Shown here: piece after piece, positions 14,987 to 48,214 of the stretch | How positions within the stretch are numbered: position 1 is the stretch's first letter | Layout: each line of letters begins with the position of its first letter | Source of the DNA: an uncultured Clostridium sp. | GTDB taxonomy: Bacteria > Bacillota > Clostridia > TANB77 > CAG-508 | Assembly: GCA_947647595.1 (NCBI GenBank) | Contig: CANSKZ010000001.1 | Coordinates: 12,912-76,911 of the forward strand | Length of the DNA stretch: 64,000 nt | Direction of reading: 5' to 3' | Notes under the pieces: generated by a model | What the model was told of the DNA's origin: nothing | The model's input: only the letters and a program-made list of their open reading frames with translations | The model's database searches: none | Made by a program: the position numbers and the translations under genes

Positions 14987-15021
14987 GTAAAAAAATAAGA
15001 GATTTTTATAAATCTCTTATT
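14987..15021 (-). terminator. rho-independent terminator after the histidine-kinase gene (minus strand)
   Basis: aataagagattt...aaatctcttatt hairpin followed by a T7 run on the minus strand. Confidence 0.7.
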
Positions 15022-15028
15022 CGAAAAT

Positions 15029-29737: not shown

Positions 29738-31174
29738 TCACCGTTTTTTCTCAAAGTGATTTAAAATATATGTTCGAAGTTCTTTTGATTCTTGATAAAA
29801 GCAATCTTCCTCGCTAGTAAAAATAAGAAATTCAGTTGCCTTCATTTTTGAAATTTTGTCAATCATATTTTGAATCCCATAATATCCTAAGTTTCCCAAG
29901 AAAGGTAAATCAAATGCACCATTATTTATCTTTAATGGAACCATATAAGTAGCAGCCTCAGAAGATAACACGATAACTTGCACACCATTAGTTTTCTTCG
30001 TTTGGATATAGTGGCTAATTGTTTCAAGTTTTTCTTTATTTTCAGAAGAAATGCCAATTGGATAAAAAGGATGATGTTTATCAAAGAATTCTAAAGAAAT
30101 ATAAACTTTAGAATAATACATCCCCTGACGAACCAAAACGCAAACCAAAATGCAAAAGCTAATAACAATAGACAATTTTTTATATAAATCAGTATCCAAT
30201 ATTTCACAAATCAATAATCGATCAATACCATAAATAAACAAAATGTAATAAAATAACATTGTCATATTAATATGGTATTCATTCATTAAAGGAAACATAT
30301 TAAAAGACATTCCGAAACTAAGACCTAATAAAAATATAATTTGGTGTTTGATTTCATTTTGTGTATTTTTTTGTGATAAAGCAAAAAGTGAAAATAGAAT
30401 AATAATCGCTATAATAAAGATATATTTCAAGTTATACCACATAAAAATACAATTAGATGAACCAAATTCCAAAATACTGCCAAAACATAAATTAATAAAA
30501 TTCCACAAATTATTTTCCTTATAAAAAAGAAAGCAAGTAACCAAAATACAAGGTAAAAATGCAGAAAGTTTTAGAAATTGATTTTTGAAAAATGCCTTAT
30601 GGAATCTAAACTGAATGGATTCGTAAAGCACAAGCCCCAAACCATAGTAAATGCCAGTGGTTTGTTTGGTAATAAAGATTAAGAACAGAAAAAATCCTTG
30701 CACAAAATGGTAATATTTAGAAGTATTATTTGTAATATGCCATAAAATTCCACCTAAACAAAATAGCAAAGCTAATTGATTATAGTTTGCACTATTTAGA
30801 AGACAAGGGCATTCTACAATAAGCCAAATAGAAGTATAGAGCATAGCCATAAATTTTTCTGCTCTCAAATTTCTAAACAAATAAAAAAGCAATAAAAATT
30901 TCAAAAAGTAAACGATAACACCATACATATTAAAGGTAACTAAATTAGCACCAAATACATGAAACATAAGATTTCCAAGAAAGAAAAAGAAAGGTGTAAT
31001 AATCACATTAAAATCCCTATAAATTAAATTACCCTGATACATTTTAAAAATACTTTGGAAGTTCCAAATATTATCAGTACATGAAAATTCGGTAAAATTA
31101 ATGCTGACTATAAGGAATAAAAAAAGTACTATAAAAAATAATATAATGAATAAGTTAGATTTTATTTTTTTCAT
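29738..31174 (-). CDS. polytopic membrane protein (10 or more TM helices) with a C-terminal extracytoplasmic domain; possible GT-C-type glycosyltransferase or polymerase-like protein
   Basis: 478 aa and highly hydrophobic. This matches the general architecture of ArnT/PMT/O-antigen-polymerase-like proteins, with no diagnostic motif seen. Start taken at the second ATG (RBS GGAG). Confidence 0.5.
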   Translation of the reverse strand: MKKIKSNLFIILFFIVLFLFLIVSINFTEFSCTDNIWNFQSIFKMYQGNLIYRDFNVIITPFFFFLGNLMFHVFGANLVTFNMYGVIVYFLKFLLLFYLFRNLRAEKFMAMLYTSIWLIVECPCLLNSANYNQLALLFCLGGILWHITNNTSKYYHFVQGFFLFLIFITKQTTGIYYGLGLVLYESIQFRFHKAFFKNQFLKLSAFLPCILVTCFLFYKENNLWNFINLCFGSILEFGSSNCIFMWYNLKYIFIIAIIILFSLFALSQKNTQNEIKHQIIFLLGLSFGMSFNMFPLMNEYHINMTMLFYYILFIYGIDRLLICEILDTDLYKKLSIVISFCILVCVLVRQGMYYSKVYISLEFFDKHHPFYPIGISSENKEKLETISHYIQTKKTNGVQVIVLSSEAATYMVPLKINNGAFDLPFLGNLGYYGIQNMIDKISKMKATEFLIFTSEEDCFYQESKELRTYILNHFEKKR

Positions 31175-31387
31175 ATTTTTCTCCATTATTTATTGTGTTT
31201 ACAAAAATATATAATTCATAGTAACATAATTGAGTAAAAAATGGCAAGAGTTTTTTGAAGATAAAAGAATTTATAAATGTCCAAAAATGTCGAACGAAAA
31301 CGATTGTATTATCGGCAAAAAACTGCTACAATAAATAAAAAGAAATGTGGCAGTTTCAAAAAATATACAAATTTTTACAAAAAAGTA

Positions 31388-31473: not shown

Positions 31474-31932
31474 ATGAATAGAAAGGTAATAAGAATTGTA
31501 TCCATATTGTTGATGGTGTTAATGGTAGTTAGTATGTTATCATGTTCCGTATTTGCTGCTGATAAGGAAGTAGTAAATAGTGATCAGTTTACAAACTTAA
31601 ATCAATTTAACAACAAATCAACAGATGCTGAAACAGCAGGCGTTTTTCAAGGATTTATTGCAACAGCAATTAACTTAGTTCAAGTTGTTGGTATGGCAGT
31701 TGCAATTATTATGCTTGTTGTAATGGCAATTAAATACATCTCTGCTGCTCCAAGTGAAAAAGCTGAAATCAAGAAAAGTGCTACTGTGTATATCGTAGGG
31801 GCTATTGTATTATTTGCTGCTGCAGGAATTTTACAAGTTATTAAAAACTTTGCAAGTGCAAATATTACTCCAGAAACAAAGGATGAGGATGTTGCTGTTG
31901 TAGAGATGATTGATGATACATATTTAGGATAG
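31474..31932 (+). CDS. VirB2/TrbC-like candidate T4SS pilin paralog 1 (signal peptide, variable region, two hydrophobic helices)
   Basis: RBS AAAGGAGG. It has a signal peptide, a variable region of about 45 aa, and then the conserved two-helix module (AIIMLVVMAIKYISAAPSEKAEIKKSATVYIVGAIVLFAAAGIL). Its own terminator follows. Confidence 0.6.
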   Translation: MNRKVIRIVSILLMVLMVVSMLSCSVFAADKEVVNSDQFTNLNQFNNKSTDAETAGVFQGFIATAINLVQVVGMAVAIIMLVVMAIKYISAAPSEKAEIKKSATVYIVGAIVLFAAAGILQVIKNFASANITPETKDEDVAVVEMIDDTYLG

Positions 31933-31952
31933 AATTTAATAAAATATAAATG

Positions 31953-31982
31953 GAGCCACGTTTTAAAAGCGTGGCTTTTTTT
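31953..31982 (+). terminator. rho-independent terminator
   Basis: agccacg-ttttaaaa-gcgtggct followed by TTTTTTT. Confidence 0.75.
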
Positions 31983-32087
31983 GGATAACTTTAAAATTAT
32001 ATTACATTTTGATTACATTTTCAAAAAAAGTATTGAAAAAAAATGAAACATATTGTAAAATGAAAATAGTAATTATTGGAGGAAAGA

Positions 32088-32477
32088 ATGAATAGACCAA
32101 GATTTAAGCAAATATTTGCTATCATATTAATTCTTATGTGTGTTTCTTGCATTTTTCCGGTGTCATTTGTGCGTGCAACAGGAAATAACTTTAATTTTTC
32201 TTCTTATGATAATCCTGCAAGTAATGCAGTAGCTAACAGTACTGCTAAAAAGGTAATGGGAATGGGAATTAATATTATAAGAGTTGTTGCAACAGGAGTT
32301 GCAGTTATTATGCTAAGCTATATTGGAATTAAATATATGATGGCAGCACCAGATCAAAAAGCAGAATTTAAAAAAAGTGCTACAATTTATGTTTTAGGTG
32401 CAATATTAATATTTGCAGCAGGAAATATTTTAACGATTATAGTCAATTTTGCAACAAGTAACATAGTAACCAAGTAA
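32088..32477 (+). CDS. VirB2/TrbC-like candidate pilin paralog 2
   Basis: ATG at 32088 after GGAGG. Conserved C-terminal module IKYMMAAPDQKAEFKKSATIYVLGAILIFAAGNIL. Confidence 0.6.
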   Translation: MNRPRFKQIFAIILILMCVSCIFPVSFVRATGNNFNFSSYDNPASNAVANSTAKKVMGMGINIIRVVATGVAVIMLSYIGIKYMMAAPDQKAEFKKSATIYVLGAILIFAAGNILTIIVNFATSNIVTK

Positions 32478-32512
32478 TATAGTAACGTAGAAAAATGTAT
32501 AAGGAGGAAATT

Positions 32513-32920
32513 ATGAAAAGGAATATAAGGGTGATTTGTGCAATATTAATTTTTTTAAATATAATATTCTTATTAGTAAATGTGTCATTGGCGGCAACAA
32601 TAAGTTCAGTAGATTCGCTTTTAGGTGAAGTTAAAGTTGGAAATACGACTTGGAATGATGCAGATACTACAAAAGGTGTAACTAATACAACACAAAAAGT
32701 AATCTCGACGGGGATTAATGTAATAAGAGTTGTAGGAACAGGAATTGCAATTATTATGTTGACATATGTGGCGATTAAATATATGTCAGCAGCACCAAGT
32801 GAAAAGGCAGAATTCAAGAAATCTGCAACAGCTATGATTGTAGGAGCAATTGTATTGTTTGCTGCTACAAATATATTAAAGATTATTGCAAATTTTGCTA
32901 CAGCTAATATAGGTTCATAG
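32513..32920 (+). CDS. VirB2/TrbC-like candidate pilin paralog 3
   Basis: RBS AAGGAGG. C-terminal module about 88% identical at DNA level to paralog 4. Confidence 0.6.
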   Translation: MKRNIRVICAILIFLNIIFLLVNVSLAATISSVDSLLGEVKVGNTTWNDADTTKGVTNTTQKVISTGINVIRVVGTGIAIIMLTYVAIKYMSAAPSEKAEFKKSATAMIVGAIVLFAATNILKIIANFATANIGS

Positions 32921-32930
32921 GAGGAAAAAA

Positions 32931-33323
32931 ATGAAAAAGAAAATAAAACAAATTTTTATAACATTATTTTTTATAAGTTTAATACTTTTTTTACAAAACA
33001 CATCATTTGCAACAGGCTGGTCTGCAACAACTGAAATAACTAATGCTGATAAGGGTTGGAGCCAGGATATAAATGATGGTGGTATAGGCAATACGACAAA
33101 AAGAATAGTAGGAACAGCAATTAATGTGATTAGAATAGTAGGCACAGGAATTGCAATTATCATGCTAACTTATGTAGCAATTAAATATATGTCAGCAGCA
33201 CCAACTGAAAAAGCAGAATTCAAGAAATCAGCAACAGCAATGATAGTAGGAGCAATTGTATTATTTGCTGCTACAAATATATTGACAGTTATTTCTAACT
33301 TTGCTGCTTCAAATGTTAAGTAA
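32931..33323 (+). CDS. VirB2/TrbC-like candidate pilin paralog 4
   Basis: RBS GGAGG. IKYMSAAPTEKAEFKKSATAMIVGAIVLFAATNIL. Confidence 0.6.
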   Translation: MKKKIKQIFITLFFISLILFLQNTSFATGWSATTEITNADKGWSQDINDGGIGNTTKRIVGTAINVIRIVGTGIAIIMLTYVAIKYMSAAPTEKAEFKKSATAMIVGAIVLFAATNILTVISNFAASNVK

Positions 33324-33358
33324 TTTAACTTTTAATTAGAATTTGATAAAACAAAAGA

Positions 33359-33383
33359 AGCTACATTTTGTAGCTTTTTGTTA
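33359..33383 (+). terminator. rho-independent terminator
   Basis: aagctaca-ttt-tgtagctt followed by TTT. Confidence 0.65.
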
Positions 33384-33472
33384 TATAAAAATAATTTCAA
33401 AAAATGTTGAAAAAAATAAGAAATTCAGTTATAATAAGTTTAAGAGGAAAATAAATTTGAGGAGGAATAAAT

Positions 33473-33859
33473 GTGAGCCAAAAGTTGAGAATAATTTTAA
33501 TAGTAGCGTTGTTGATTGTTGGAGTATTTTTTATAAATAATGAAGTGTTTGCAGTAGCTCAAAAGGGAAAAAGTTTGGTAAATTCCTTTAGTGGTACTGG
33601 CACAAATGTGATTGATACTACAGAAGGAGGGGGATTAATTGATAAAATTGCTGGTCCAATTTTATCAGTAATGAGAATTGTTGCAATTGGAATTGGTATG
33701 ATTATGATAACGTTTTTAGGAATTAAATATATGTCAGCAGCACCTACAGAAAAAGCAAGTATAAAAAATCAATTAATTGCATTTGCAGTTGGATTGGCTG
33801 TTGTTGTATCAGCAACAACTATATTACAAATGATATATACAGCTGTAACAAATCTATAA
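33473..33859 (+). CDS. VirB2/TrbC-like candidate pilin paralog 5 (GTG start)
   Basis: GGAGG lies 8 nt upstream of the GTG. The ATG at 33471 runs into a stop immediately. IKYMSAAPTEKASIKNQLIAFAVGLAVVV. Confidence 0.55.
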   Translation: MSQKLRIILIVALLIVGVFFINNEVFAVAQKGKSLVNSFSGTGTNVIDTTEGGGLIDKIAGPILSVMRIVAIGIGMIMITFLGIKYMSAAPTEKASIKNQLIAFAVGLAVVVSATTILQMIYTAVTNL

Positions 33860-33879
33860 TAATATAAGGGAGAATAATT

Positions 33880-34263
33880 ATGAGATTGAAAAAAGTAATC
33901 ATTTTATTAGTTTTATGTATGATTTTTATTTGTTTAATACCCAAAAAAACATTGGCAACAACAATTACAGATGGAAATCTTAAGAATATTGTCGAGAATC
34001 CAAAAATGAAGGATGTTGGTAAAGCAACTACTGGTGGCAGGATACAAAAAGTATTAAATACTGTTATAAAATTGATACAATTAGCGGGGACAGCTGTATC
34101 TGTCATTATGGTAACGATGCTTGGAATTAAATATATGCTATCAAGTTCGACTGAAAAAGCTGAAATAAAAAAGACGGCAATGCCAATTATTATTGGTTGT
34201 GTATTATTATTTGCAGCCGTTAATTTAGTTGGTATTATTGCAGATATTGGAGTTAATCTTTAA
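33880..34263 (+). CDS. VirB2/TrbC-like candidate pilin paralog 6
   Basis: RBS AAGGGAG. IKYMLSSSTEKAEIKKTAMPIIIGCVLLFAAVNLV. Confidence 0.55.
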   Translation: MRLKKVIILLVLCMIFICLIPKKTLATTITDGNLKNIVENPKMKDVGKATTGGRIQKVLNTVIKLIQLAGTAVSVIMVTMLGIKYMLSSSTEKAEIKKTAMPIIIGCVLLFAAVNLVGIIADIGVNL

Positions 34264-34285
34264 AAGAAGAAATAATAAACAAAAA

Positions 34286-34316
34286 ATGGAAAAGCAAATT
34301 GCTTTTCCATTTTTTG
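34286..34316 (+). terminator. rho-independent terminator
   Basis: atggaaaagc-aaatt-gcttttccat followed by TTTTTT. Confidence 0.75.
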
Positions 34317-34502
34317 TCGTTTTTATTACATTTGTGTTACAAATGCAAAATTTGCGTGAAAAATGTTGAAAAATGATTTGTTTTAAAGTATAATAATATT
34401 GAGATAATATAAAAAGTAAAAATGGGTCAACTTAGAAATACACGATTGTTTTAGATTAAAAGGAAGGGAGAAATTAGTTGTTAAAACTAATTAAAAATAA
34501 AA

Positions 34503-34913
34503 ATGAAATTATATAAAAAACTCTTGTTAATGTTTGTAGTAGTTAATCTATTAGTAGGCTGGATTTGTTTTAATAAGTTTGAAGTGAGTGCAACAGATTT
34601 TATAACGAAAATGGAAAAGGATGCTTCAAGTTTTATTTCATCAGGAGAAACGGAAGCAAATAAAAAGAAAATGGGAAATGTTACAAAAGCCATTACTGAT
34701 AACTTTTCAGGGCTAGGTCAACTTTTGACGATGGTTGGTGCTGGTGTTATGGTTGCAGTTGTGTCGTATATGGGAATTCAATATATTATGGCTCCACCAG
34801 ATAAGCAAGCAGCTTTAAAGCAACAATTGATTGGTGTTGTTGTGGCAGGAATTGTTATATTTGGAGCTTATGGAATTTGGAAAGCGGTTTTAGGAGTTGT
34901 ATCGAATTTTTAA
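34503..34913 (+). CDS. VirB2/TrbC-like candidate pilin paralog 7 (most divergent; first gene of the downstream operon)
   Basis: Same topology (IQYIMAPPDKQAALKQQLIGVVVAGIVIFGAYGI). Weak RBS. A TTGAAA-17-TATAAT promoter lies at about 34374-34402. Confidence 0.5.
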   Translation: MKLYKKLLLMFVVVNLLVGWICFNKFEVSATDFITKMEKDASSFISSGETEANKKKMGNVTKAITDNFSGLGQLLTMVGAGVMVAVVSYMGIQYIMAPPDKQAALKQQLIGVVVAGIVIFGAYGIWKAVLGVVSNF

Positions 34914-34934: not shown

Positions 34935-35285
34935 ATGGGAACGTATTATATACCACGTAATTATAAGGGAGAATCAAGAATATTATATATTTTTTCAGTA
35001 AAATCATTACTAACAACAGCGATTGGCGCTGGAATAGGGGCCATATTTCTTTGGCTGTTTTCGATGATGGCATTGAAGAAAGTAGGCATTATTATCATGG
35101 CGATTTTTGCTGTGGTTGGATATATTGTGGGAGCAGTTAAAATTCCGACGATTGTCAGTATTCCAGTTACAAAGAAAATTGGTGGAGAGCCAATTAGTGA
35201 AATTATTATTCGTTATGTGAAATTTAAGAAAACACGTAAAATATATACTTATTGCCAAAACAAAGATACTAAGGAGGAAAATTAG
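34935..35285 (+). CDS. small two-TM protein, VirB3/PrgI/TcpE-like by size, topology and position immediately upstream of the VirB4-like genes
   Basis: 116 aa with two adjacent hydrophobic helices and no signal peptide. RBS AAGGAGG. Confidence 0.5.
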   Translation: MGTYYIPRNYKGESRILYIFSVKSLLTTAIGAGIGAIFLWLFSMMALKKVGIIIMAIFAVVGYIVGAVKIPTIVSIPVTKKIGGEPISEIIIRYVKFKKTRKIYTYCQNKDTKEEN

Positions 35286-36626
35286 ATGGATATTATTACA
35301 TTGTTGCAAATCATGATTGGCTTTATTATTTTTATCATGTTTTTGTTGGTTTTATTTTATTTATATTTAATTAAACCCAAAAAACAGAAGAAAGAAGAAG
35401 AGTCAACTCAAATTGGATATGCACAGGAAACAGGAAAAGAAAAGAAAATAGAAAATTATGGACGATTCCAAGGAGAATTGACACAAGAATCCATTTTTGA
35501 TTTTATGGAATTTGACGAAGTAATTGACAATATGATTGTTCGTAAGAACAAGACACAATATATCATGGTTTTACAATGTAATGGTGTGAATTATGATTTG
35601 ATGTCTGAACAAGAAAAAATTGCGGTTGAGGAAGGATTTGTACAATTTTTGAATACGCTTAGATTTCCAATCCAATTATATGTGCAAAGTAGAACATTAA
35701 ATTTGAAAGATATTGTGGCTGGCTATAAGGAAAGAGTGAATGTTGTTAGCAATGATATTAGTAAAATTGACATGAAGATTGAACAAGCACAAAGAGCTAA
35801 TAATAAAGCTTTACTAGAAAAACTTTATTTTGAGAAAAGAAGAAAACAAAATGTTTTGGAATACGGAATTGATATTACAAATTATGTGGACCGATTGAAT
35901 TCTAATCAAAATATTTTGCAACAAAGAACTTATGTGATTGTTTCCTTTTTTATCAATGAGCTTGGTGGAAGCATGGAAAATTATTCGAAAGAAGAAATTG
36001 ATAATATGTGTTTTTCAGAGCTTTATACGAGATGTCAAAATGTTTCAAGCAGTCTTATGGGGTCACAAGTTAGTAGCCGAATTTTGGAATCAGAAGAGTT
36101 GATGGAATTATTGTATATTGCTTATAACAGAGATGAATCGGAATTATATCAATTACAAAAAGCATTGGATGCACAATATGATGCATTGTATAGTACAGGA
36201 AAAGATGTGTTGCAAAAGAAACAAGAAAAATTGGACAAAGAGATTAATATTGCAGCCATCGATATGGCAACAGATAGCATTCTAAGAGCAGATAAACAAA
36301 AGCAAAAGGAAGATTTAGAAAGAGAAAAAGATAAGACAAGAGCGATTAAAGATAAAGCATCTGAGTTGTTAGACCAATATGAAGACCAATTGAATCCAAG
36401 AGTTTTTGAATTGGCGAAGGAGAATGTTCGAAAAAGTCCAGAACCAGAAGAAAAGAAGGAATCTCAAAAGATTCCTCAAAAAACTGGGACAAGACAAACA
36501 ACGGTAAGAAGAGTTCCAAAAGCTCAGGGAACCCAAGCAGAACCTCAAACAAGAGCACGAACAACAGGGACGGAAGCTCCAAGAAGAAAAGTTGTAAAAA
36601 GGAATAATACAACACCAGAAGACTAA
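35286..36626 (+). CDS. membrane-anchored protein (N-terminal TM helix) with a basic, T/P/K-rich C-terminal tail; probable T4SS component
   Basis: 446 aa. The region IMVLQCNGVNYDLMSEQEKIAVEEGFVQFLNTLRFPIQLYVQS resembles the N-terminal domain pattern of Gram-positive VirB4/ConE proteins (recalled from memory, not verified). Confidence 0.55.
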   Translation: MDIITLLQIMIGFIIFIMFLLVLFYLYLIKPKKQKKEEESTQIGYAQETGKEKKIENYGRFQGELTQESIFDFMEFDEVIDNMIVRKNKTQYIMVLQCNGVNYDLMSEQEKIAVEEGFVQFLNTLRFPIQLYVQSRTLNLKDIVAGYKERVNVVSNDISKIDMKIEQAQRANNKALLEKLYFEKRRKQNVLEYGIDITNYVDRLNSNQNILQQRTYVIVSFFINELGGSMENYSKEEIDNMCFSELYTRCQNVSSSLMGSQVSSRILESEELMELLYIAYNRDESELYQLQKALDAQYDALYSTGKDVLQKKQEKLDKEINIAAIDMATDSILRADKQKQKEDLEREKDKTRAIKDKASELLDQYEDQLNPRVFELAKENVRKSPEPEEKKESQKIPQKTGTRQTTVRRVPKAQGTQAEPQTRARTTGTEAPRRKVVKRNNTTPED

Positions 36627-36646: not shown

Positions 36647-37756
36647 ATGTTTGGAACAAAAAAACAAGAATCTACAAATGAGTTTGAATTAGAAGTCAAA
36701 AAAGAAAAAGAAGTGAAAAGCATTTTCAAAAAAGAGGAGAAGGATTTGAAGCATTTGATTGCTCCAGGAGGAATTGATGCGAGTTATACCAATCATATTG
36801 AAATTGCTTCTGGTCGAACAAGATATGCTAGAAGTATGATTGTGGCAGCTTTGCCTAGAATGTGTACGTTCCCAGAATTTTTGAGAGGAATGTATACGTT
36901 TGGTGATATTAATGTGTCTGTTTTTATTAATCCAGTAAGTGAGTCTACTTCTCAAACAGATTTGAACCGAACGATTAATGAGTTGGAATCTGAAAGGGTA
37001 GTTGCGCAAGATAGAGGTGATATTAACAGGGAAAGAATTATTGCACAGAAAAGGGCTGAAGCAGAAGAATTAAGAGATGCCATTGCAGCAGGTTTTAATA
37101 AATTATTTGATGCTACAATCATTTCCACAATTTTTGCTTATAGTATGGATGAATTGGATAAATATACAGAATTACTAAGCAATGAGATGTCTAAAAATTT
37201 GATTGATATGAAACCAGCTTGGGCGATGCAAGATGCTGCTTTTCGTTCGAATATGCCATTTTGTGAAAATAAATTAAATAAATCGCATACTTTTGATAGA
37301 AGAGCAATGTCAACGGTATTTCCGTTCTTTAATTCAGAAGTTGGTCATGATGATGGAATTCCACTTGGATTTAACAAGCAGACAGGACTTCCAATTTTGT
37401 ATAATAATTTTAGTTCGAAATTAACGAATTATAATATGATTGTATTTGGAAAATCTGGTGCTGGTAAATCAGTTACGATAAAAACACTTTCTGCACGTTC
37501 TTCGATTTTAATGGGAATCGAGAGTTTGGCTTTAGATGCAGAAGGTGAATATGGTTCTGTTGCAGAATCTTTAGGTGGTGTTAATGTTGTTATTAGCCCA
37601 ACTTCGAAAACAGTTATTAATGTTTTTGACATTGAACCTGAGGTAATTAAAGATGAAATAACAGGAAAAGAAAGAACGGTTGTAAGCGTTGAAAATAAAG
37701 TAGAAGATGTTACGCAAGGTTTGCTTACGATGGCAAGACGGAAGTACAGGAAGTAA
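36647..37756 (+). CDS. VirB4/TraE/ConE-family conjugation-type ATPase, N-terminal part including Walker A (gene interrupted by a frameshift near 37720-37745)
   Basis: LIAPGGID region. Walker A FGKSGAGKSV. The frame ends at ...TMARRKYRK and the next frame continues. Confidence 0.7.
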   Translation: MFGTKKQESTNEFELEVKKEKEVKSIFKKEEKDLKHLIAPGGIDASYTNHIEIASGRTRYARSMIVAALPRMCTFPEFLRGMYTFGDINVSVFINPVSESTSQTDLNRTINELESERVVAQDRGDINRERIIAQKRAEAEELRDAIAAGFNKLFDATIISTIFAYSMDELDKYTELLSNEMSKNLIDMKPAWAMQDAAFRSNMPFCENKLNKSHTFDRRAMSTVFPFFNSEVGHDDGIPLGFNKQTGLPILYNNFSSKLTNYNMIVFGKSGAGKSVTIKTLSARSSILMGIESLALDAEGEYGSVAESLGGVNVVISPTSKTVINVFDIEPEVIKDEITGKERTVVSVENKVEDVTQGLLTMARRKYRK

Positions 37757-38636
37757 GGAAGTAAACGAGCTTACGAAACAAATTATTTCAGAATCAGTTT
37801 TGGAAGAATATGTGAGTCGTGGAATTAATAGTACAGTGGAAAGTTTGTATGAAAAATCAAACGATGGACGTATTAATATGTCGCAAGATTATTTGGGAAA
37901 AGTAAAAAAGGAAATGCCTACGATTGGTTCTTGGTATAAAAGAATTTGCCGAAAGGCACAGGAAAATGAAAATCCAGATTATCGTTTCCATTATAGTTAT
38001 TTGGTAAAAGTTATGAAGCAATATGTTAGAGAATTACATGGACAAATGGCGTATTTTGATGGGCAATCGACATTTGAATTGTTAGATGGTGTGCCATTTA
38101 TTAATTTGGATATTTCTCAATTGGAGGAAAGATTTGCAAGACCACTTGCTCAGCAAATTTTGCTTTCTTGGGTTTGGGAAAAGTATGTTAAGAAAAATAG
38201 TGAGGATAAAACCAAAGCTGCCAAAAAAAGAGTTCTTGTTGACGAAGCATGGATGATGCTTCCACTTCCAGAGGCAGTTGATTTCTTGAATACTATGGCA
38301 AGACGTGCTAGAAAGAGAAATGTTTCATTAGCTGTTATTTCACAAAAATTCCAAGATTTTTATGAAAAACCAGAAGCGCAAGCAATTTTGACTTCGTCAG
38401 AAACGAAGTTGTTTTTGGCACAGGATAAATCAGAAATTGAATATTTAAAGGAAGTATTTAAATTAAGTGAAGGTGAAGCTGGATTTTTGATTACTTGTGG
38501 AAGAGGTGAAGGTTTGCTTAGAGTTGGTGGTGATTCTGCGATTTTATCTATTCAGCCAACAAACAAAGAGTTTGAATTTGTGGAAACAAACTTAAATAAA
38601 CAAATTGAAATGGAAAAAGCAAGACAGCAACAATAA
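37707..38636 (+). CDS. VirB4-family ATPase, C-terminal part (Walker B RVLVDEAWMML, AVISQ motif)
   Basis: This frame overlaps the end of the previous ORF across an imperfect GGAAGTA x3 repeat. Together the two parts give about 665 aa. Confidence 0.7.
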   Translation: MLRKVCLRWQDGSTGSKEVNELTKQIISESVLEEYVSRGINSTVESLYEKSNDGRINMSQDYLGKVKKEMPTIGSWYKRICRKAQENENPDYRFHYSYLVKVMKQYVRELHGQMAYFDGQSTFELLDGVPFINLDISQLEERFARPLAQQILLSWVWEKYVKKNSEDKTKAAKKRVLVDEAWMMLPLPEAVDFLNTMARRARKRNVSLAVISQKFQDFYEKPEAQAILTSSETKLFLAQDKSEIEYLKEVFKLSEGEAGFLITCGRGEGLLRVGGDSAILSIQPTNKEFEFVETNLNKQIEMEKARQQQ

Positions 38637-38657
38637 TATTAAAAAATGAGGTTATCA

Positions 38658-39845
38658 ATGAAAAAAATAATAAGCACGCTGGTAGTGGCGGTGATTTTAT
38701 TTAATTTCATATTTTGCAATAGTGGTTATGCAACTGAAAATGTAGAATTTAAGGATGATGTGACAACAGATTCGATATCAGGTAAAGATTTGGAAGGACT
38801 TATTAGTGAGTCAAAAGCAAATTATGTGGACAGCGAAACCAAAGTAGATTTTAGTTCATTGGGAACTGGAATATTTGGAACAATTGGAGGAATATTAGCT
38901 AGATTTTTTAATATTTTTCCACAGTTAATCAGACTGATTATGCTACTTTGTGTGGTAGAAGAGTTTACGATTCAGAAGGCAGTGTTTAATGAAATATCAA
39001 TCTTTAATATAGATTATTTCAATTTTAAAGAACCATATGAGTATACCATAGGAAATAAAATTGGTGATAATAATTATAAAAAAAAGATAAAATCTGGTAA
39101 TACAGTCGAAATTTCGATTCGAAAAAGTGTTGCGAAATATTATTATATTTTAAGATTGATAGCAATGGCGCTTAGTTTAGTGATTTTAATCTATGTTGGA
39201 ATTAGAATGGCGTTGTCGACGATTTCTTCCGATAAAGCTAAGTATAAAGGAATGCTGATTGCTTGGATAGAAAGTATTGTATTATTATTTGCGATGCAGT
39301 ATATTATATCTTTTATAATAAGTGCTGGAAAGCTATTTGGTGATTTAATGTATTCACTTAGATGCATTATGGATGCTAGTGGAGAACTTAGCTTTGAAAC
39401 AGAAATTTTAGCAATGATGGACGTAGGATTATTGCAATATACTGGTTGGAGTTATGTTGGATATTCGATTGCTTTTTGGTTTTTAATTTATGTGCAAACT
39501 AAATTTTTCCTGATGTATTTTAAAAGAGTAATTACTGTTGGCTTTTTAATTTTAATCTCTCCGATTATAACCATTACTTACCCAATTGATAAGGTTGGTG
39601 ATGGAAAGGCGCAAGGTTTTACAATATGGAGTCATGAATTGATTTTAAATGTATTGATACAACCAATTCAAGCATTGATATATCTTGTTTTCATGTATAC
39701 AGCAGGAGAAATTGCGAAAATATCAATGTGGGTTGCTTTGGCATTTTTATTGGGATTAACGAAATTTGAGAAAATTATTTTACAATTGTTTAATTTGAGA
39801 AATGTTGTAAGTTTGAAACCTGTTGATGAGCAAAGGAAAAAATAA
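38658..39845 (+). CDS. VirB6/ConG-like polytopic membrane protein, paralog A (signal peptide plus about 150-aa extracytoplasmic N-terminal domain)
   Basis: Motifs shared with paralogs B and C: AKYYYILRLIAMALSLVILIYVGIRMALSTISSDKAKYKGML and ITVGFLILISPIITITYPIDKVGDGKAQGF. At least 5 TM helices. Confidence 0.6.
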   Translation: MKKIISTLVVAVILFNFIFCNSGYATENVEFKDDVTTDSISGKDLEGLISESKANYVDSETKVDFSSLGTGIFGTIGGILARFFNIFPQLIRLIMLLCVVEEFTIQKAVFNEISIFNIDYFNFKEPYEYTIGNKIGDNNYKKKIKSGNTVEISIRKSVAKYYYILRLIAMALSLVILIYVGIRMALSTISSDKAKYKGMLIAWIESIVLLFAMQYIISFIISAGKLFGDLMYSLRCIMDASGELSFETEILAMMDVGLLQYTGWSYVGYSIAFWFLIYVQTKFFLMYFKRVITVGFLILISPIITITYPIDKVGDGKAQGFTIWSHELILNVLIQPIQALIYLVFMYTAGEIAKISMWVALAFLLGLTKFEKIILQLFNLRNVVSLKPVDEQRKK

Positions 39846-39856: not shown

Positions 39857-41404
39857 ATGCAAAAAGGAAAATATATCAATCAGAATCAAGTTAGGAAAAA
39901 AGTAATAATTTTAATTGCTGTGGTAAGTTTGATTTTTGTTTTGTTAGTTTTAGAAGCAATGTTAAAAAATATCCAAAATGAAAATCAGGAAAAAGAGTTG
40001 CAAATGGCAAATGGAAATTTTACTTCTGTTGAAGATATTTTGGAATATTATGGATGCCAAGTGATAAAAATCAAAAATAACACAGAAGGCAATTTTTTGG
40101 TTGATATATATACAACATTCAAATATGAATTATATGAAGATGAAAAGAGCAATGAAGAATTTTATAACAAAATAATCAATCAAATTGCTAAATTTTTAAA
40201 TTATCGAAATTTCAGAATGGTGGATGAACAAAAAGAAGAAAAAATAGAAATACAAGTAATTTGTGGCAAAAATAAAATACAAAAAATTTTGATTAATGGA
40301 ATTGAAGATTATTTTATTTATATGGATTCGCAGATTAATTTAAGCAAATACAAGGAAATTCCAACAACAGAAGCTTCGATTCAATCGCCTGAATTAATCA
40401 GTTGCATTCAAAATAATTGGAATGCTAATGTGAATTTTGGTACAAGAGAAACGATTTTTCAGAATTATTATATTTATTTTGATGAAGGAATAGAAGTACG
40501 AAAAATTAGTGGAAAAATTTACAATGTAGTTTTTACAAAAAATTATGTAAAACCAGTTGTAAATGGCTTTACTGTTGGAGAAAAACGTGATATAATAATA
40601 AGAGAACTAGGAAATCCAACTTTTGAAAATGAAAATAAAAGTATCATAGGATATAAAACGAAAGATATTTATGTTTTTTTTGAAGAAAATCAGATTTCCA
40701 TTTACAGAAACATAACAGAAACTGGATTTGACGAATTTTTTACATTAGTAGATAAATTTTTAGAAGAAGAATATTCTCTTTTAGAATTTATGAATGAGCT
40801 AACTTATTTATGGCCTGATTATGAAGAATATACATATGATGCAGAAACTGTGTTTTTATCGTATCCGAATAAAGGAATTGATATTAAAATGAATTATGAC
40901 CATACCAACGGAATTGTGATTTATAATAACATAGGAGTAACGCAAAATGAGATAAATAAGTATTTTAATTATACAGAATTTATTGCTTTATTGCAAATTG
41001 ATAATGTGTATAATGCTGAGATAAGACGAGTGAATAAGCAATTAGAATTTGCTAAAAAGTGTGAAGAATATCAAATACAGTATGAGGAAAAAGACAATAG
41101 AAATCGAGGAAAAAATTACGATTATTATATGAAAATGGGCAATAATGGAGGAATTATTTGCACCTATTTTATAGCAAAAAATCCACAATATCCAAATTGC
41201 GAATTAAGTGAAAATATAAATTCTTATATTTGGGTGAATGAAGATTGCTTTGTATATAGTGTTGTAAATAAAGGAATCTATTATTACGATTTAAAAACAC
41301 AGAAGAAAGGAACGATTATTACAGGAAATGAGAATTTTGAAATAAAATCTTATCAGGAGGATATTTTAAAATATGATGATAGTGAATTACAAATAAAATA
41401 TTAG
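39857..41404 (+). CDS. hypothetical membrane-anchored extracytoplasmic protein (515 aa)
   Basis: RBS GGAGGA and an N-terminal TM helix. No motif recognised. Possible VirB8-like role suggested only by its position in the cluster. Confidence 0.5.
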   Translation: MQKGKYINQNQVRKKVIILIAVVSLIFVLLVLEAMLKNIQNENQEKELQMANGNFTSVEDILEYYGCQVIKIKNNTEGNFLVDIYTTFKYELYEDEKSNEEFYNKIINQIAKFLNYRNFRMVDEQKEEKIEIQVICGKNKIQKILINGIEDYFIYMDSQINLSKYKEIPTTEASIQSPELISCIQNNWNANVNFGTRETIFQNYYIYFDEGIEVRKISGKIYNVVFTKNYVKPVVNGFTVGEKRDIIIRELGNPTFENENKSIIGYKTKDIYVFFEENQISIYRNITETGFDEFFTLVDKFLEEEYSLLEFMNELTYLWPDYEEYTYDAETVFLSYPNKGIDIKMNYDHTNGIVIYNNIGVTQNEINKYFNYTEFIALLQIDNVYNAEIRRVNKQLEFAKKCEEYQIQYEEKDNRNRGKNYDYYMKMGNNGGIICTYFIAKNPQYPNCELSENINSYIWVNEDCFVYSVVNKGIYYYDLKTQKKGTIITGNENFEIKSYQEDILKYDDSELQIKY

Positions 41405-41416: not shown

Positions 41417-44400
41417 ATGAAGTCAATTATTAGCAGAATTTCATATAAAATGTTAGTAACAACAATGATAACAGTAATATTGTCTTTCTTTGTTGTGACT
41501 TCATGTTCTCATGCCAATAAATTTAGTGAATTAGTTAATGATGATGGAATCTATTATAATGGAACCCAAGAATCTACGCTTTCTGAAAAAGATGGATTTT
41601 TTGCAAAGCTTGTCAACCTTTTATCAAGTATTGCAACGTATTTGTTAGGGTTGATAGGATTAGGAATTCGAGGTGTTTTCATTGGATGGATAGAAATTGC
41701 TGAAATGTTACTGACGATGATTTTAGATATTGATGGTGACCTAGGCAAAATAAATGATGATGCAATGGATGTTTATACAGAAAATATAGTAAATGTAGAA
41801 AGTATATTATTTAACAGAGTTCCAATATTAGAAGCTAACATCTTCAAAAGTCTTAATGCTGAAAATGAGAAGAAAGATGAGAAAAAAGAAGAATCGAAAA
41901 CAAAAGAAGAAAAAGCAGCAGAAAAGAAAGAAAAAAAAGAAAATAAAATTGTTACAGCCATTAAAAGTGCAGTTGCAAAATGGTATTATGTTTTAAGATT
42001 AATGGTTATTGCACTTATGTTAATTCTACTAATTTTTGTGGGAATAAAAATGGCCATTTCTACAGTTGCTTCGGAAAAGGCAGTCTATAAGCAAATGCTA
42101 ACTGATTGGATTGTAGGAATGATTATTGTATTTATGATTCATTATATTATGGTTCTTATTTTTACAATTAATGATTCTGTTATTAATGGATTAGAACCGT
42201 TACTAAATAATAATAGTACATTAGAATTAGAAGAATATCAATACGGTATAGAACCTGAAGAAATTGAGACTTTTGGTGACCGCGAAACAACTTTATATGA
42301 ATCAGCTAGAACAAGAGCCTATAGTTTAAATTTGGTAGATGGTTTTACAGGAATGGTTATTTATGGTGTATTAGTTTATTATGCTTGGCGATTTGCGGTT
42401 ATGTATTTAATGAGAGTATTTAATATTATGATACTTACTTTAATAGCACCAGTGATTGCAGCATCTTATGCAGTAAATAAAGTATTAACAGGAAAATCAA
42501 AGATATTTTCAAGTTGGCTGAATGAATATATTATTAATGTTATTATTCGATTATTCCATGTAATTATTTATGTTTCATTTGTAGCAATTGCTTTAGAATT
42601 ATCTTTAGAGTCATTGCCAGGAATTATTCTAGCTTTTGTTATGTTACATTTTATGCTTGAGGCAGATAAATTGCTAAGAACATTATTCAAAATGTCTGGA
42701 GGCAAAGGCAGTTTATCTGGAACAATGGAAAAAACAAATCTTAATGATATTAAGAGTGGAATAAAAGGACTAGGAGCTACGATGGTTGGAGGAAAAATTG
42801 GTATGGCTGCTATGAAAGCAACTTATGGAATTGCAACAAAACCAGGAAGAGCACTTGTTGAAACTGCATTTGGAAATCATATGGCAAAAAAAGCAAATCA
42901 AAAAGAACAAGAAGAAAAGAACAAACAAGAAGAAAAAGAAAAATTAGAAGAAAAGAAAAATGATTTAGAAGAAAGTATTGCAACATTAAAACAAAGACAA
43001 AATAATATAAAAGATAAAGAGTTTGATGCGGAAAGATGGCAAGCATGGTATAGAGCAGAAGGAGAAGAAACAAAACTAGGACAAAAGACACAGGAACTTC
43101 AAAATTTGAGGTTGCAAAAAACAGAAGTTGAAAAACAATTGCGTGAATATGAAGAAAAACTTGAAGAAGCAAATGATAATTTAGAATATAGGAATGAATT
43201 AAATAGAATTGAAGCATTAGAAAAAGAATTTTATGCAGGAACTTTTGGAGGTGCTATCGATAATTTATTTGACCCATTTAATTACACAGAAAAAGATAAG
43301 AAAACAGGAAAATATCGTCGCATGAGAGCAAGAAGAAAAGGTGGTGCTAAATATGCATTTTGGCGCAAAAAAGTGGATGGTATTGGAATGCGATTTATGG
43401 AAAATGCAAAATTAAAAAATCTATTTAATTTGTCAAACGATGAAGTAAAGCGCTTAAAAGAACAATTTAACTTTTCGAAATCAACAGTAGTTGGATTTTT
43501 CTCTGCTGCCTTTGGATTCCCTACTTTAGTGATTAATCCTACATTAGGAGTTGCTTTGCTTGGACAAGCAGGTTATTCTGGGTTACGAATGGCAACTAGA
43601 ATGAGACAAATTAAAAATAGACCTAGTTACAAAAAAAATAAACGCTATAATTTTGTTGCTTTCAACAAGGGAGCACAATATACGATGAAAGTAGAAGCTG
43701 TAAGACAAGCTAGGGAATTAGAAGCGGAAAGAACGCAAAGATTTGCAGGAAAACATCAAAAGTTTGTTAGAAAGCTATTGAATAATATGGTTAAAGCTAC
43801 TACAATTCCTGACCTTGACCCAATTACATCAGAAGAATTATCAGAATTGGCTTATATAAAATATACAAAGCAATTTAAAACAGCTTTAAAAGATTTAAAC
43901 GAATTAGAAACCTCTTTAAATAAAGCGGAATTTACTGAAAGATTTTCAGAAGAGGAAAGAAATCAGCAAGAGAAGGCAGAAAAAATGTCAGAGAAACAAT
44001 TATTATTTAAAGAATGTGCAAATCAGGAAGGTGTAATTGCAGTAGGAAATTCATTATTTGAAGTAAAAATGGATAATACAGTAGAACAAGCAGAAGAAAA
44101 ATTTATTGAAAATGCCGAGAAAAAAATGGATAAAGCATCAGGTCAAACAAGAGAACAAAGAATCAATTCACTTAAAAAACATATAACAGCGAATAAAGAT
44201 ACATTAATTCAAAATCAAATTGAAAAGTACTATGCTAGAAGAGGAATTATTGATATTAGTAACATGGAAATGTCTGAGAGTGATAAAACACAAATTAAAC
44301 AAAATGTTTTAGGTGTTTTAGAAGAAAAGGGGATTATCAAAAAAGGAGAAATAAAACTTGAGGATAATTTTATTAGTAATGAAAATGTTACAAGTATTCA

Positions 44401-45124
44401 TGCAAAATTGCAATCAAATAAAAATAAGACCAATCAATCCTTAGAGCAAAGAGTTGCTACAGATGCTGTTTTGGAATATATGAAACAAACGGGAACTACT
44501 AATAAAAATGACTTATTACAAAAAACAGATGAGATATATAATTTAGTAAAAGAAAAGATTATGACAAATGATTCGAAAAAATCAGCAGATGTTATCAAAA
44601 AGATTTCAGGTCAAGATAAGAAAAAGCAAGTGGTTCAGTTATCAGATTATATGAAAGAAGCAGTTGAAACAGATATCAAAAAAGTTAAGAAAGTAGATTT
44701 AGCAGATAAGTCAAAAGATAAAGAAACTTTAGTAGAACATGAAACAAATCGAAAAATGAATCAAACAAAAAACAAGCTAGAAGAAGCGTTATGTGCTGAT
44801 ACTGTTGAAAATATCGAAGATAATTCTACATTAGAGATGCTATTTGCTTTATCTAGAATTGGTGAAAATAATCGTGAGGCAGTAGAAGTGCTTGGAAAAA
44901 AACGAAAACAAACCAAGAAAGCACAATTAGAAACATTAGAATTTTATCAAGATGGAAGCCGAAAACTTGACAAAAACAAAGATGGAAGTCGAAAGTTTGA
45001 TGAAACAAAAGATGGAAGTAGAAGATTGGCTGAAGAATATTTTATGGAAAGCAAAAAAGAAGCTTTAGAAAAAAGGCTTTTCGGTCCATCGCAAAATGTA
45101 ATTGATTTAATTAATAATGTATAG
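41417..45124 (+). CDS. VirB6/ConG-like polytopic membrane protein, paralog B, with an 800-aa K/E-rich coiled-coil C-terminal extension (1,235 aa)
   Basis: Conserved module AKWYYVLRLMVIALMLILLIFVGIKMAISTVASEKAVYKQMLTDWI. Long charged repeats follow. RBS AGGAGG. Confidence 0.6.
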   Translation: MKSIISRISYKMLVTTMITVILSFFVVTSCSHANKFSELVNDDGIYYNGTQESTLSEKDGFFAKLVNLLSSIATYLLGLIGLGIRGVFIGWIEIAEMLLTMILDIDGDLGKINDDAMDVYTENIVNVESILFNRVPILEANIFKSLNAENEKKDEKKEESKTKEEKAAEKKEKKENKIVTAIKSAVAKWYYVLRLMVIALMLILLIFVGIKMAISTVASEKAVYKQMLTDWIVGMIIVFMIHYIMVLIFTINDSVINGLEPLLNNNSTLELEEYQYGIEPEEIETFGDRETTLYESARTRAYSLNLVDGFTGMVIYGVLVYYAWRFAVMYLMRVFNIMILTLIAPVIAASYAVNKVLTGKSKIFSSWLNEYIINVIIRLFHVIIYVSFVAIALELSLESLPGIILAFVMLHFMLEADKLLRTLFKMSGGKGSLSGTMEKTNLNDIKSGIKGLGATMVGGKIGMAAMKATYGIATKPGRALVETAFGNHMAKKANQKEQEEKNKQEEKEKLEEKKNDLEESIATLKQRQNNIKDKEFDAERWQAWYRAEGEETKLGQKTQELQNLRLQKTEVEKQLREYEEKLEEANDNLEYRNELNRIEALEKEFYAGTFGGAIDNLFDPFNYTEKDKKTGKYRRMRARRKGGAKYAFWRKKVDGIGMRFMENAKLKNLFNLSNDEVKRLKEQFNFSKSTVVGFFSAAFGFPTLVINPTLGVALLGQAGYSGLRMATRMRQIKNRPSYKKNKRYNFVAFNKGAQYTMKVEAVRQARELEAERTQRFAGKHQKFVRKLLNNMVKATTIPDLDPITSEELSELAYIKYTKQFKTALKDLNELETSLNKAEFTERFSEEERNQQEKAEKMSEKQLLFKECANQEGVIAVGNSLFEVKMDNTVEQAEEKFIENAEKKMDKASGQTREQRINSLKKHITANKDTLIQNQIEKYYARRGIIDISNMEMSESDKTQIKQNVLGVLEEKGIIKKGEIKLEDNFISNENVTSIHAKLQSNKNKTNQSLEQRVATDAVLEYMKQTGTTNKNDLLQKTDEIYNLVKEKIMTNDSKKSADVIKKISGQDKKKQVVQLSDYMKEAVETDIKKVKKVDLADKSKDKETLVEHETNRKMNQTKNKLEEALCADTVENIEDNSTLEMLFALSRIGENNREAVEVLGKKRKQTKKAQLETLEFYQDGSRKLDKNKDGSRKFDETKDGSRRLAEEYFMESKKEALEKRLFGPSQNVIDLINNV

Positions 45125-47678: not shown

Positions 47679-48203
47679 ATGTCAAATTCAAAAAAGAAGA
47701 ATCAAATAGGTTACAAAAAGTTATATATTTTAATCATCCTTATTATTTTAATAACGATATTAATCGGAAACTTGAATTCTAGACTTACAAAAGATGAGTT
47801 GTCAAGTCCACAAAGCGAAGAAGAAGTAGAAGAATATATTGAGCAAAATATTACGAAAACTTTGCAAGGAATGGAAGAAAGAGACAGAATGGAATATTAT
47901 GTTGGGATATTTTTAGGATACATAGAAAGTGGAGAATATGAAGATGCTTATCATTTACTATATGAAGATTTTAAAAAAACATATTTCCCAACATTAGAAT
48001 CTTTTGAAAAATATATCCCAACTGTGTTTTCTGAAATGACAGATATAAAACATGAAAATATCGAAAGAAATGGTGATGTGTATGTTTTATGGATTAAAAT
48101 TACGGATGCTGTCAATGGCAAACCAGGAGAACAAAGAAACATGAATATTGTCATTAAGGAAAATGATTATAATGACTTTGTTTTATCATTTAGTGCGATA
48201 TAA
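47679..48203 (+). CDS. hypothetical membrane-anchored protein (174 aa)
   Basis: RBS AAGGAGAG. N-terminal TM helix. Confidence 0.5.
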   Translation: MSNSKKKNQIGYKKLYILIILIILITILIGNLNSRLTKDELSSPQSEEEVEEYIEQNITKTLQGMEERDRMEYYVGIFLGYIESGEYEDAYHLLYEDFKKTYFPTLESFEKYIPTVFSEMTDIKHENIERNGDVYVLWIKITDAVNGKPGEQRNMNIVIKENDYNDFVLSFSAI

Positions 48204-48214
48204 AGGAGAAAGAT

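Follow-up and report, generated by a model that had tools for sequence, protein, structure and literature searches.

A conserved array of seven predicted VirB2-like pilin genes at the head of a chromosomal type IV secretion locus in gut Clostridia

Seven tandem genes in the genome of an uncultured Clostridium sp. (GTDB lineage TANB77; CAG-508) probably encode pilin-like proteins of the VirB2 family, subunits of a type IV secretion system (T4SS) that is chromosomal, belongs to the TrsD+VirB4 type found in monoderms, is inherited vertically at least among close relatives and has a fixed set of differentiated subunits. The stretch analysed, hereafter “the window”, comprises 64,000 nucleotides (nt) of assembly GCA_947647595.1 (contig CANSKZ010000001.1, positions 12,912–76,911 of the forward strand). 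All coordinates given below are positions within this 64-kb window, where the array occupies 31474–34913. By analogy, the system may be classified as MPF_FATA-like of the pGO1 subclass, with an architecture common to Patescibacteria. As far as one can judge from the sequence, the Patescibacteria-type array of VirB2-like pilins, i.e. a precedent from another monoderm phylum, now appears to extend to ordinary Gram-positive gut bacteria, where it is recognisable by existing profiles. VirB2 arrays from Clostridia or Bacillota did not come up in our literature searches. Until 2023–2025 reviews held monoderm T4SSs to have no VirB2 pilin, and a 2025 FEMS review still regarded Patescibacteria as the only monoderms whose system could potentially make a conjugative-type pilus.

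The array consists of seven tandem plus-strand open reading frames (ORFs) of 127–152 amino acids (aa), and the common architecture ascribed to them in the initial annotation was borne out by the ORFs themselves, by a DNA repeat, by hydropathy, by the inter-helix loop and by the putative cleavage site. All products start with a signal peptide, continue with a segment of 28–39 aa that is specific to each paralog and end with a conserved hairpin of two helices and a short basic loop. A repeat finder that is blind to reading frames detected a 98-nt core in seven in-register copies, 62–100% identical to the reference copy (family D2). Three hydrophobic segments were registered in every paralog and are read as the signal peptide and two predicted transmembrane (TM) helices. 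From two to four of the first eight residues are K or R, and a −3/−1 site with small residues (AxA-type) is found at residues 26–30 of each protein (VFA/A, VRA/T, SLA/A, SFA/T, VFA/V, TLA/T and VSA/T). The inter-helix loop, again in all seven, has 16 residues, net charge +1 or +2 and the consensus KYMSAAPxEKAEFKKS. The predicted design of a VirB2-type precursor (signal peptide, two hydrophobic helices and charged loop) is therewith seen in every copy. Nevertheless the paralogs are divergent: identity between them amounts to 17–47% in N-terminal parts, 18–81% in cores and 32% on average (range 22–57%) over the full length. The signal peptide is intact in each copy and a ribosome-binding site lies near the start in six of them, being absent at copy 7. 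The start is ambiguous for copy 2 (32076 or 32085, giving 133 or 130 aa) and copy 3 (32495 or 32513, giving 141 or 135 aa); ATG codons at 32085 and 32513 yield typical signal peptides, and the latter is also the start of an identical database protein, P0001.

Membership in the VirB2/TrbC-like pilins, which had been proposed from the letters alone, was supported by two Pfam families, T4SS_pilin (PF18895, gathering score 26.6 bits) and TrbC/VirB2 (PF04956, 27.9 bits), together with the canonical place upstream of virB3-virB4. The threshold of PF18895 was passed by copies 1 (31474–31932, 152 aa; 37.2 bits), 3 (32513–32920, 135 aa; 31.2 bits), 4 (32931–33323, 130 aa; 30.7 bits), 5 (33473–33859, 128 aa, GTG start; 27.8 bits) and 6 (33880–34263, 127 aa; 31.0 bits). 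Copy 2 (32085–32477, 130 aa from ATG in the ORF that opens with TTG at 32076) falls just below it, by 0.5 bit (26.1 bits), and copy 7 (34503–34913, 136 aa), the most divergent one, by 3.8 bits (22.8 bits). The score required for PF04956 was reached by copy 6 alone (35.7 bits), while copies 2, 3, 4, 5 and 7 gave 18.7–24.1 bits (22.2 for copy 2, 18.7 for copy 7) and copy 1 had no listed match. Below threshold, yet consistent, are matches to DUF2976/TIGR03745, a family of MPF_G integrative and conjugative elements (ICEs), and to the “pilin-like” family Mbov_0395 of Mycoplasma ICEs. PF18895 is precomputed on most of 120 relatives, relatives are labelled “VirB2 component (pilin)” by the Joint Genome Institute (JGI), and the whole family is large, a search at E≤1e-3 giving 5849 cluster representatives (50% identity). 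A TcpD/E-like nature, named at the outset as the outcome that would speak against pilins, found no counterpart, as none of the seven copies matched TcpE, Maff2 or another Pfam family of small T4SS membrane proteins at E≤1. The AlphaFold2 (AF2) model of copy 3, based on 93 sequences, contains the signal-peptide helix (3–41), a low-confidence linker and the helices of the hairpin (54–92 and 95–133) with pLDDT >90. Fold searches do not discriminate in this case, also as regards solved pilin subunits (F TraA, T-pilus VirB2, R388 TrwL and others), since a helical hairpin is too generic for assigning a pilin by structure match. Four database proteins of 360–457 aa (P0314–P0317) carry 3–5 consecutive pilin modules and may be either true tandem-pilin fusions or gene-calling read-through.

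The genes that follow the array on the same strand belong to a secretion machine. The stop codon of copy 7 lies 21 nt before a gene for a PrgI/VirB3-like small membrane protein (34935–35285), which is followed by a TrsD-like gene (35286–36626) and virB4 (36647–38636), and this order is the same in 56 loci. The VirB3/PrgI-like protein matches PF12666 (PrgI) below threshold (E 0.0014) and is 55–92% identical across loci. The TrsD-like protein (446 aa, precomputed PF26593 TraC-like) represents the N-terminal domain of VirB4 encoded as a separate gene, and it is a separate ORF in each of these 56 loci. The VirB4 ATPase (DUF87, P-loop_TraG and AAA_10) is encoded here by two overlapping ORFs, 36647–37756 and 37707–38636, but is unsplit in 50 of the 56 loci. 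Relative to the intact gene of locus L009 (L numbers denote the loci compared), the split is a 1-nt insertion (junction 37707–37756; MAR/GSTGSKEVNEL); four near-relative species also have an interrupted VirB4, with different overlaps. An alternative genetic code was rejected as the cause, given this insertion and the normal long ORFs under table 11. The gene may be split at a domain linker, where this is tolerated, or else be read by translational frameshifting. In both halves synonymous substitutions relative to L004 far outnumber non-synonymous ones (42 versus 3 and 58 versus 5), which means strong purifying selection, and because of this the T4SS looks functional.

Further downstream three large polytopic proteins contain a hairpin similar to the pilin core: p399 (38646–39845; residues ~164–231), p1235 (41417–45124; residues ~185–256) and p840 (45141–47663; residues ~167–238). 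An hmmsearch with a profile built from the seven paralogs registered them with E values of 8e-9, 1.6e-11 and 3e-7, respectively; p399 and p840 also match PF18895 (E 0.003 for both), and p399 has a weak match to NCBIfam MMCAP2_0566. The hairpins follow the pattern GI[KR]M.xST.[AS][SE][EDQ]KA.YK and are clearly homologous to the pilin core; the embedded hairpin is visible at the DNA level too (repeat D4, in p1235). We infer that these three proteins may form a VirB6-like platform or a tip nucleating pilin assembly. Between the first two of them lies p515 (39857–41404), a conserved cluster protein with an N-terminal TM segment. Two bitopic proteins, p174 and p321 (47679–49180), possibly play a VirB8-like role, and p1697 (49197–54290), a membrane-anchored cell-wall hydrolase with Peptidase_C39_2 and Phage_lysozyme2 domains, would be functionally VirB1-like. 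Orthologs of the latter (P0222–P0313) keep the N-terminal part and have swapped catalytic domains (C39-like, phage lysozyme, NlpC/P60, glucosaminidase, CHAP, Hydrolase_2 or GDSL lipase). The last gene of the cluster encodes p196 (54328–54918), which has an N-terminal TM segment; the metagenome scan gave no matches to it, and ORFs of 174–183 aa in the same position in L082–L084 were matched by position alone.

Arrays of this kind are not confined to one species. When one genome per species was scanned, 76 loci were found, all of them in metagenome-assembled genomes (MAGs) of uncultured gut Clostridia from mouse, rabbit, ruminant, chicken and human hosts; “Candidatus Scatovivens” and “Clostridium sp. 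CAG:354” are among them, as is a single closed chromosome of 1.8 Mb. Small pilin ORFs number from 3 to 8 in 61 loci, i.e. in about 60 species-level MAGs: 8 in 2 loci, 7 in 25, 6 in 13, 5 in 1, 4 in 16 and 3 in 4. The remaining 15 loci, with one or two such ORFs, are orphans, and frequently the genome in question has another locus as well. An orphan single pilin of ~142 aa was noticed elsewhere in many genomes with a full array; it may share a contig with the array, and in a number of genomes it lies beside a paralog of the GT-C glycosyltransferase gene (L019, L022, L023, L031, L033, L037, L039, L046, L048, L052, L065, L077 and L078; the match lies at about 10 kb in most). Three loci (L005, L007 and L015) have 3–4 pilins beside htrA without VirB3/VirB4.

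The order of genes in the arrays is conserved as well. Each copy finds its best match in the copy of the same number in the nearest species (L004, L006 and L008); named positional orthologs are those of copy 1 in L004, L006, L008, L009 and L010 and of copy 2 in L004 and L006 (L004.2 and L006.2). Copies 6 and 7 are positionally kept in nearly all distant arrays, and every 7-copy locus examined has in the seventh position an ortholog of copy 7 with 42–66% identity. Long gaps after copies 1 and 6 also recur in distant arrays, as seen from coordinates. Orthologs are 59–90% identical in the core and 26–72% in the N-terminal part, which beyond the nearest species is recognisable only for copies 1, 5 and 7, but not for 2, 3, 4 and 6.

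Copies 3 and 4 deserve separate consideration, as their similarity had been taken for a sign of recent duplication and diversification. The ~88% DNA identity stated for their conserved half is close to our estimate, 84% over a 198-nt core (81% at the aa level), and in a global DNA alignment 30-nt blocks are 80–97% identical within the last ~180 nt (3′) as against 43–73% in the 5′ half. However, the idea of a recent event is contradicted by the presence of positional orthologs in other species and by comparison of four genomes, where the cores of the two paralogs within a genome are at least as alike (82–92% DNA identity) as orthologs between genomes (72–84% in either pairing). In L004 the N-terminal part of each of the two copies still goes with its counterpart in the same position. 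This points to concerted evolution of the core, or else to constraint on an old duplication, and since the core is homogenised within genomes while N-terminal parts pair by position, the duplication should be regarded as old rather than recent. The array as a whole thus appears, from its sequence, to be old and ordered and not a product of recent amplification.

Predicted transcription signals divide this ordered set into units. The four promoters (at copies 1, 2, 5 and 7) and three terminators (after copies 1, 4 and 6) marked initially were all found as predicted sites. The four best plus-strand sigma-70-like matches (10–11 of 12 positions) start at 31388, 32033, 33407 and 34366 and occupy the four long intergenic gaps. 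P1 (31388–31416, TTTACA-17-TATAAT with TG before −10) has 11 of 12 matches, P2 lies at 32033–32061, P5 (TTGAAA-17-TATAAT) at 33407–33435 and P7 at 34366–34394. Terminator-like hairpins follow paralog 1 (31952–31978, 12 pairs with a T run), paralog 4 (33358–33376, called by the scan on the minus strand, although T-rich sequence follows the palindrome on the plus strand too) and paralog 6 (34279–34317, a strong one with 18 pairs). Terminator-like sites are enriched (9 found versus 1.1 expected), while promoter-like sites overall are not (32 versus 30.3). Nearly invariant across six species is the region upstream of copy 7 (34326–34394), where the −35/−10 boxes of P7 are preceded by the direct repeat TTACA-N6-TTACA (34326–34341). 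The same repeat (32002–32017) lies together with P2 at 32002–32061. It occurs 4 times in the window versus 0.42 expected and may be a putative regulator binding site; the two other occurrences are upstream of minD (22714–22740). A short ORF upstream of copy 7 was considered as a leader and rejected, as it is not conserved in L008–L010. Separation of the array into individually transcribed units is therewith supported by predicted signals.

Based on this arrangement one can propose different roles for the copies. Copy 7 heads the virB3-trsD-virB4 unit and would be transcribed together with the motor genes; the virB2-virB3-virB4 gene order, its own conserved promoter and universal presence make it the probable ancestral core pilin. 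Copy 1, which has an additional acidic C-terminal tail of ~22 aa, is a candidate major subunit, because it makes up a monocistronic unit with a near-consensus promoter (extended −10) in front and a strong terminator behind. Copies 2–6 would be accessory or alternative surface variants.

A different reading of the same data would be an array for surface variation, in which pilins are interchangeable and only one or few are expressed at a time, as was proposed for VirB2 paralogs of Anaplasma/Bartonella and, speculatively, for Patescibacteria. Exposed N-terminal segments that are unrelated between paralogs and diverge so fast between species that those of copies 2, 3, 4 and 6 are lost from sight past the nearest relatives are in line with it; four separate promoters would permit differential expression, and concerted evolution of the core in copies 3 and 4 means recombination between copies. 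Yet copy number, order and positional orthologs are conserved in many species, neither inverted repeats nor an invertase gene nor truncated, silent cassettes were found, and the signal peptides are intact in all copies, as are ribosome-binding sites in all but copy 7. Variation of the Rickettsiales type, to which the array had been likened initially, was not seen among strains either: in two conspecific assemblies no single nucleotide polymorphism (SNP) falls into the array (0 of 35 and 0 of 20), and a third assembly has 4 SNPs in a 1.7-kb contig over copies 1–3. In this small sample there is no sign of strain-level hypervariation, and on balance we find surface switching unlikely. The seven copies are best read as a fixed differentiated subunit set, neither recently amplified nor fast-switching, because their N-terminal segments would lie outside while the hairpin is conserved.

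The genomic setting of the locus bears on whether it may serve conjugation. The window is ~99.8% identical, over the compared stretches, to MAG GCA_949927425.1 (uncultured Clostridia bacterium), and the same proteins occur on a 378-kb contig too. The cluster is flanked by htrA, minD, minE, rodA, dus and the genes for a PemK toxin and tRNA-Met upstream and by rpsF-ssb-rpsR, mraZ and mraW downstream; its GC content is like that of the flanks. Neighbours on both sides are the same in the L006 genome and other ones in more distant species. VirB4 is 74–99% identical across species, far above pilins, against 74–80% for the flanking Dus.

One could therefore suspect a conjugation module of an integrated or degraded ICE, with pilins used for mating-pair formation in DNA transfer. 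The closest plasmid-encoded VirB4 proteins belong to Clostridium and Bacillus plasmids (29–40% identity), and those with ~40%, on plasmids of Clostridium botulinum and C. beijerinckii, have the same pilin-VirB3-TrsD-VirB4-hydrolase order; the tRNA-Met gene just upstream of the cluster and the change of flanking genes in distant species also agree with an ICE. Against it, no families of relaxase, type IV coupling protein (T4CP) or integrase were found in the window or around the hydrolase gene in L082–L084, and the repeat finder gave no att-like direct repeats in the window. With such repeats lacking and the cluster on the 5′ side of the tRNA, where 3′ is usual, integration at the tRNA-Met gene was rejected. 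The GC content equals that of the flanks, VirB4 is better conserved than the housekeeping Dus (95% versus 80% in L006), the chromosomal position is common to the L006 genome, and the typing of the C. botulinum plasmid is non-mobilizable. Plasmids and phages searched by megablast with the 20-kb locus gave no matches, nor did plasmids searched by tblastn with copy 3 or viral contigs that were scanned, and the tRNA was the sole match in Rfam. A relaxase, T4CP and integrase or att sites linked to mating-pair formation genes, as expected of a self-transmissible element, were not found in this neighbourhood, which has housekeeping flanks. An ICE origin is for us less likely still than surface switching, and by its sequence the locus looks chromosomal, with no signs of mobility. 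The role of the system, as proposed for that of Patescibacteria, is probably other than self-transfer of a mobile element; this follows from a neighbourhood without relaxase, coupling protein and integrase.

How such a set of pilins might work can be outlined only conditionally. The precursors would be exported by Sec and cleaved by signal peptidase after the AxA-type site at residues 26–30, so that the mature two-helix hairpins would pool in the membrane, their basic loop facing the cytoplasm. From there they would be extracted by the VirB3/TrsD/VirB4 motor on the platform of p399, p1235 and p840, and the subunits would polymerise into a short pilus or conduit across the thick wall, opened by the 1697-aa hydrolase. 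In the polymer, tube and lumen would be built from the conserved hairpin with its basic loop, and the paralog-specific segments of 28–39 aa would be outside. Formation of a pilus is itself presumed, since fold searches do not discriminate a helical hairpin. The least likely of the alternatives, to which we give little credit, sees in the array stoichiometric, membrane-resident parts of the translocon that make no pilus, similar to small Tcp/Trs proteins, with the variable segment contacting the wall: no conjugative pilus was ever seen on a Gram-positive cell (bioRxiv 10.64898/2025.12.18.695078), the presence of the hairpin in three large polytopic proteins would suit an assembly module embedded in the membrane and the fold does not discriminate, but the matched profiles describe pilin families whose characterised members polymerise, the predicted cleavable signal peptide with two helices and a basic loop is a specific design of pilin precursors, labelling data on PrgF support extrusion in a Gram-positive system (bioRxiv 10.64898/2025.12.18.695078), and small membrane-protein families such as TcpE and Maff2 gave no match at E≤1.

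The best precedent for the proposed pilin set comes from Patescibacteria (Wang et al. 2023; Quinonero-Coronel et al. 2025, PMC12102498; reviewed in PMC12857230). Their T4SS is chromosomal, MPF_FATA-related, contains TrsD and VirB3 and mostly lacks a relaxase (PMC12102498; PMC12857230). TrsD, known from the pGO1 subclass of MPF_FATA, is its most abundant component, and 441 arrays of 2–11 VirB2-like genes were detected there by PF18895/PF04956, with a mean identity of 25% and a maximum of 54% (PMC12102498); the pilin array is essential in “Ca. Southlakia epibionticum” (PMC12102498; PMC12857230). The locus described here is alike in its monoderm host, chromosomal location, VirB3/PrgI, TrsD and VirB4, in having no relaxase near the cluster (within the window) and in tandem divergent pilins recognised by the same Pfam models (mean 32% and maximum 57% as compared with their 25% and 54%). 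It differs in its host, a lineage of gut Clostridia (Bacillota), and may differ also in three large proteins that embed the hairpin and in an often adjacent GT-C glycosyltransferase. In addition, the Clostridia array is shown here to be ordered, its copies having positional orthologs and a core that evolves in concert.

Single VirB2-like proteins have been reported from Gram-positive conjugation. PrgF of pCF10 is reported to be VirB2-like and essential for conjugation, and similar proteins were predicted on most Gram-positive conjugative plasmids, including one from C. botulinum (ter Beek et al. 2025, bioRxiv 10.64898/2025.12.18.695078); 16 plasmids were inspected there visually and only one candidate per plasmid was modelled as a pilus. 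The PrgF-PrgH pilus models of that preprint are a further precedent for the assembly proposed here. Like the present proteins, PrgF is small, has two helices and a short charged loop between them and is encoded beside a Gram-positive T4SS core; a VirB6-like platform is proposed for its polymerisation. However, PrgF systems are plasmid-borne and conjugative, while the Clostridia array is chromosomal and has seven paralogs with signal peptides and extended N-terminal segments, and no transfer genes were found with it. One true homolog of the family is encoded by the C. botulinum plasmid p12/29 (L081, 9247–17723) before VirB3-TrsD-VirB4, which are followed by an 864-aa protein and a C39 peptidase. 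The premise that Gram-positive T4SSs lack VirB2, from which novelty of the array had been deduced, does not hold, therefore, in view of the Patescibacteria arrays (PMC12102498; PMC12857230), PrgF (bioRxiv 10.64898/2025.12.18.695078) and this plasmid homolog.

Gram-negative TrbC/VirB2 proteins of MPF_T (PF04956) and their paralogs in Anaplasma/Bartonella share with the Clostridia pilins a long signal peptide, two helices, a basic loop, the place upstream of virB3-virB4 and tandem paralogs. They differ in that six of the seven Clostridia copies remain under the PF04956 threshold, that the Clostridia system is devoid of the VirB7/9/10 outer-membrane core and of VirB5, because the envelope is monoderm, that it shows no evidence of pilin cyclisation, and that the Clostridia paralogs, unlike those of Anaplasma/Bartonella, are conserved by position and not variable among strains. 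The ICEs of Mycoplasma, another low-GC monoderm, are mobile elements with a DDE transposase. They gave weak collinear matches (pilins to Mbov_0395, E 0.005–0.07; p399 to MMCAP2_0566, E 0.003; TrsD-like protein to VirB4_plasma, E 0.06), all of them, however, far under the curated cut-offs; judged by the single equivalog family name, these elements probably carry one such pilin gene.

The same package, a PF18895 array with VirB3, TrsD and VirB4 on the chromosome and no relaxase found, is present in ~60 species of Clostridia, and its single-pilin version exists on Clostridium plasmids. The study of Patescibacteria left open whether their pilins were inherited with an MPF_FATA-like system or co-opted from elsewhere (PMC12102498), and the Clostridia loci together with the plasmid version therefore bear directly on the origin of these pilins. 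They provide a second, phylogenetically independent group for asking what a non-conjugative monoderm T4SS with many pilins does, and bear on whether monoderm T4SSs build pili at all. Conserved order, fast-evolving exposed segments on a homogenised core and the hairpin in three large proteins lead to testable hypotheses on assembly. A more extended picture may be offered only tentatively: small-genome gut Clostridia might possess a core, vertically inherited and relaxase-free T4SS, with a pilus of seven fixed pilins and three platform/tip proteins containing the pilin domain, possibly glycosylated by the GT-C enzyme. It might be the Bacillota counterpart, possibly the source, of the essential T4SS of Patescibacteria, serving cell-to-cell interaction or uptake and not conjugation.

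The glycosyltransferase in question is o482 (29738–31186, minus strand; 482 aa), a membrane protein with GT-C fold encoded divergently from pilin 1. It has no Pfam match of its own, while PMT_2 is found in 16 of 51 relatives. Its AF2 model has pLDDT 93.5, and the top PDB matches in Foldseek are ArnT, STT3, PglB, ALG3/9, Pmt and AftA/B, with E values down to 6e-5. In 19 of 70 loci the first pilin gene is preceded by a homolog of o482 at a distance under 1.5 kb, which applies to 5 of the 14 loci that have no more than two pilin genes, and one can assume from this proximity that o482 is possibly accessory to pilins. N-glycosylation sequons (N-x-S/T) before helix 1 were considered as its targets and rejected, since they occur in 75 of 316 pilins versus 63.4 expected and show no association with adjacency of o482.

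Several other features of the window are worth mentioning. Directly after the T4SS cluster (55119–57026) the rpsF-ssb-rpsR genes are followed by a gene for a 218-aa protein with a C-terminal oligonucleotide-binding (OB) fold similar to that of the single-stranded DNA-binding protein (SSB), preceded by an N-terminal extension of 120 aa. The idea that the T4SS might be connected through DNA handling with the adjacent SSB genes was rejected: SSB1 belongs to the housekeeping rpsF-ssb-rpsR operon, and unrelated genes follow the cluster in other species. Upstream of the region, on the minus strand, there is a single-module gene similar to those of nonribosomal peptide synthetases (NRPS; 17071–21369, 1432 aa, with condensation, adenylation, peptidyl carrier protein (PCP) and reductase domains), beside which a histidine kinase and an HD-domain response regulator are encoded (13780–17047, minus strand).

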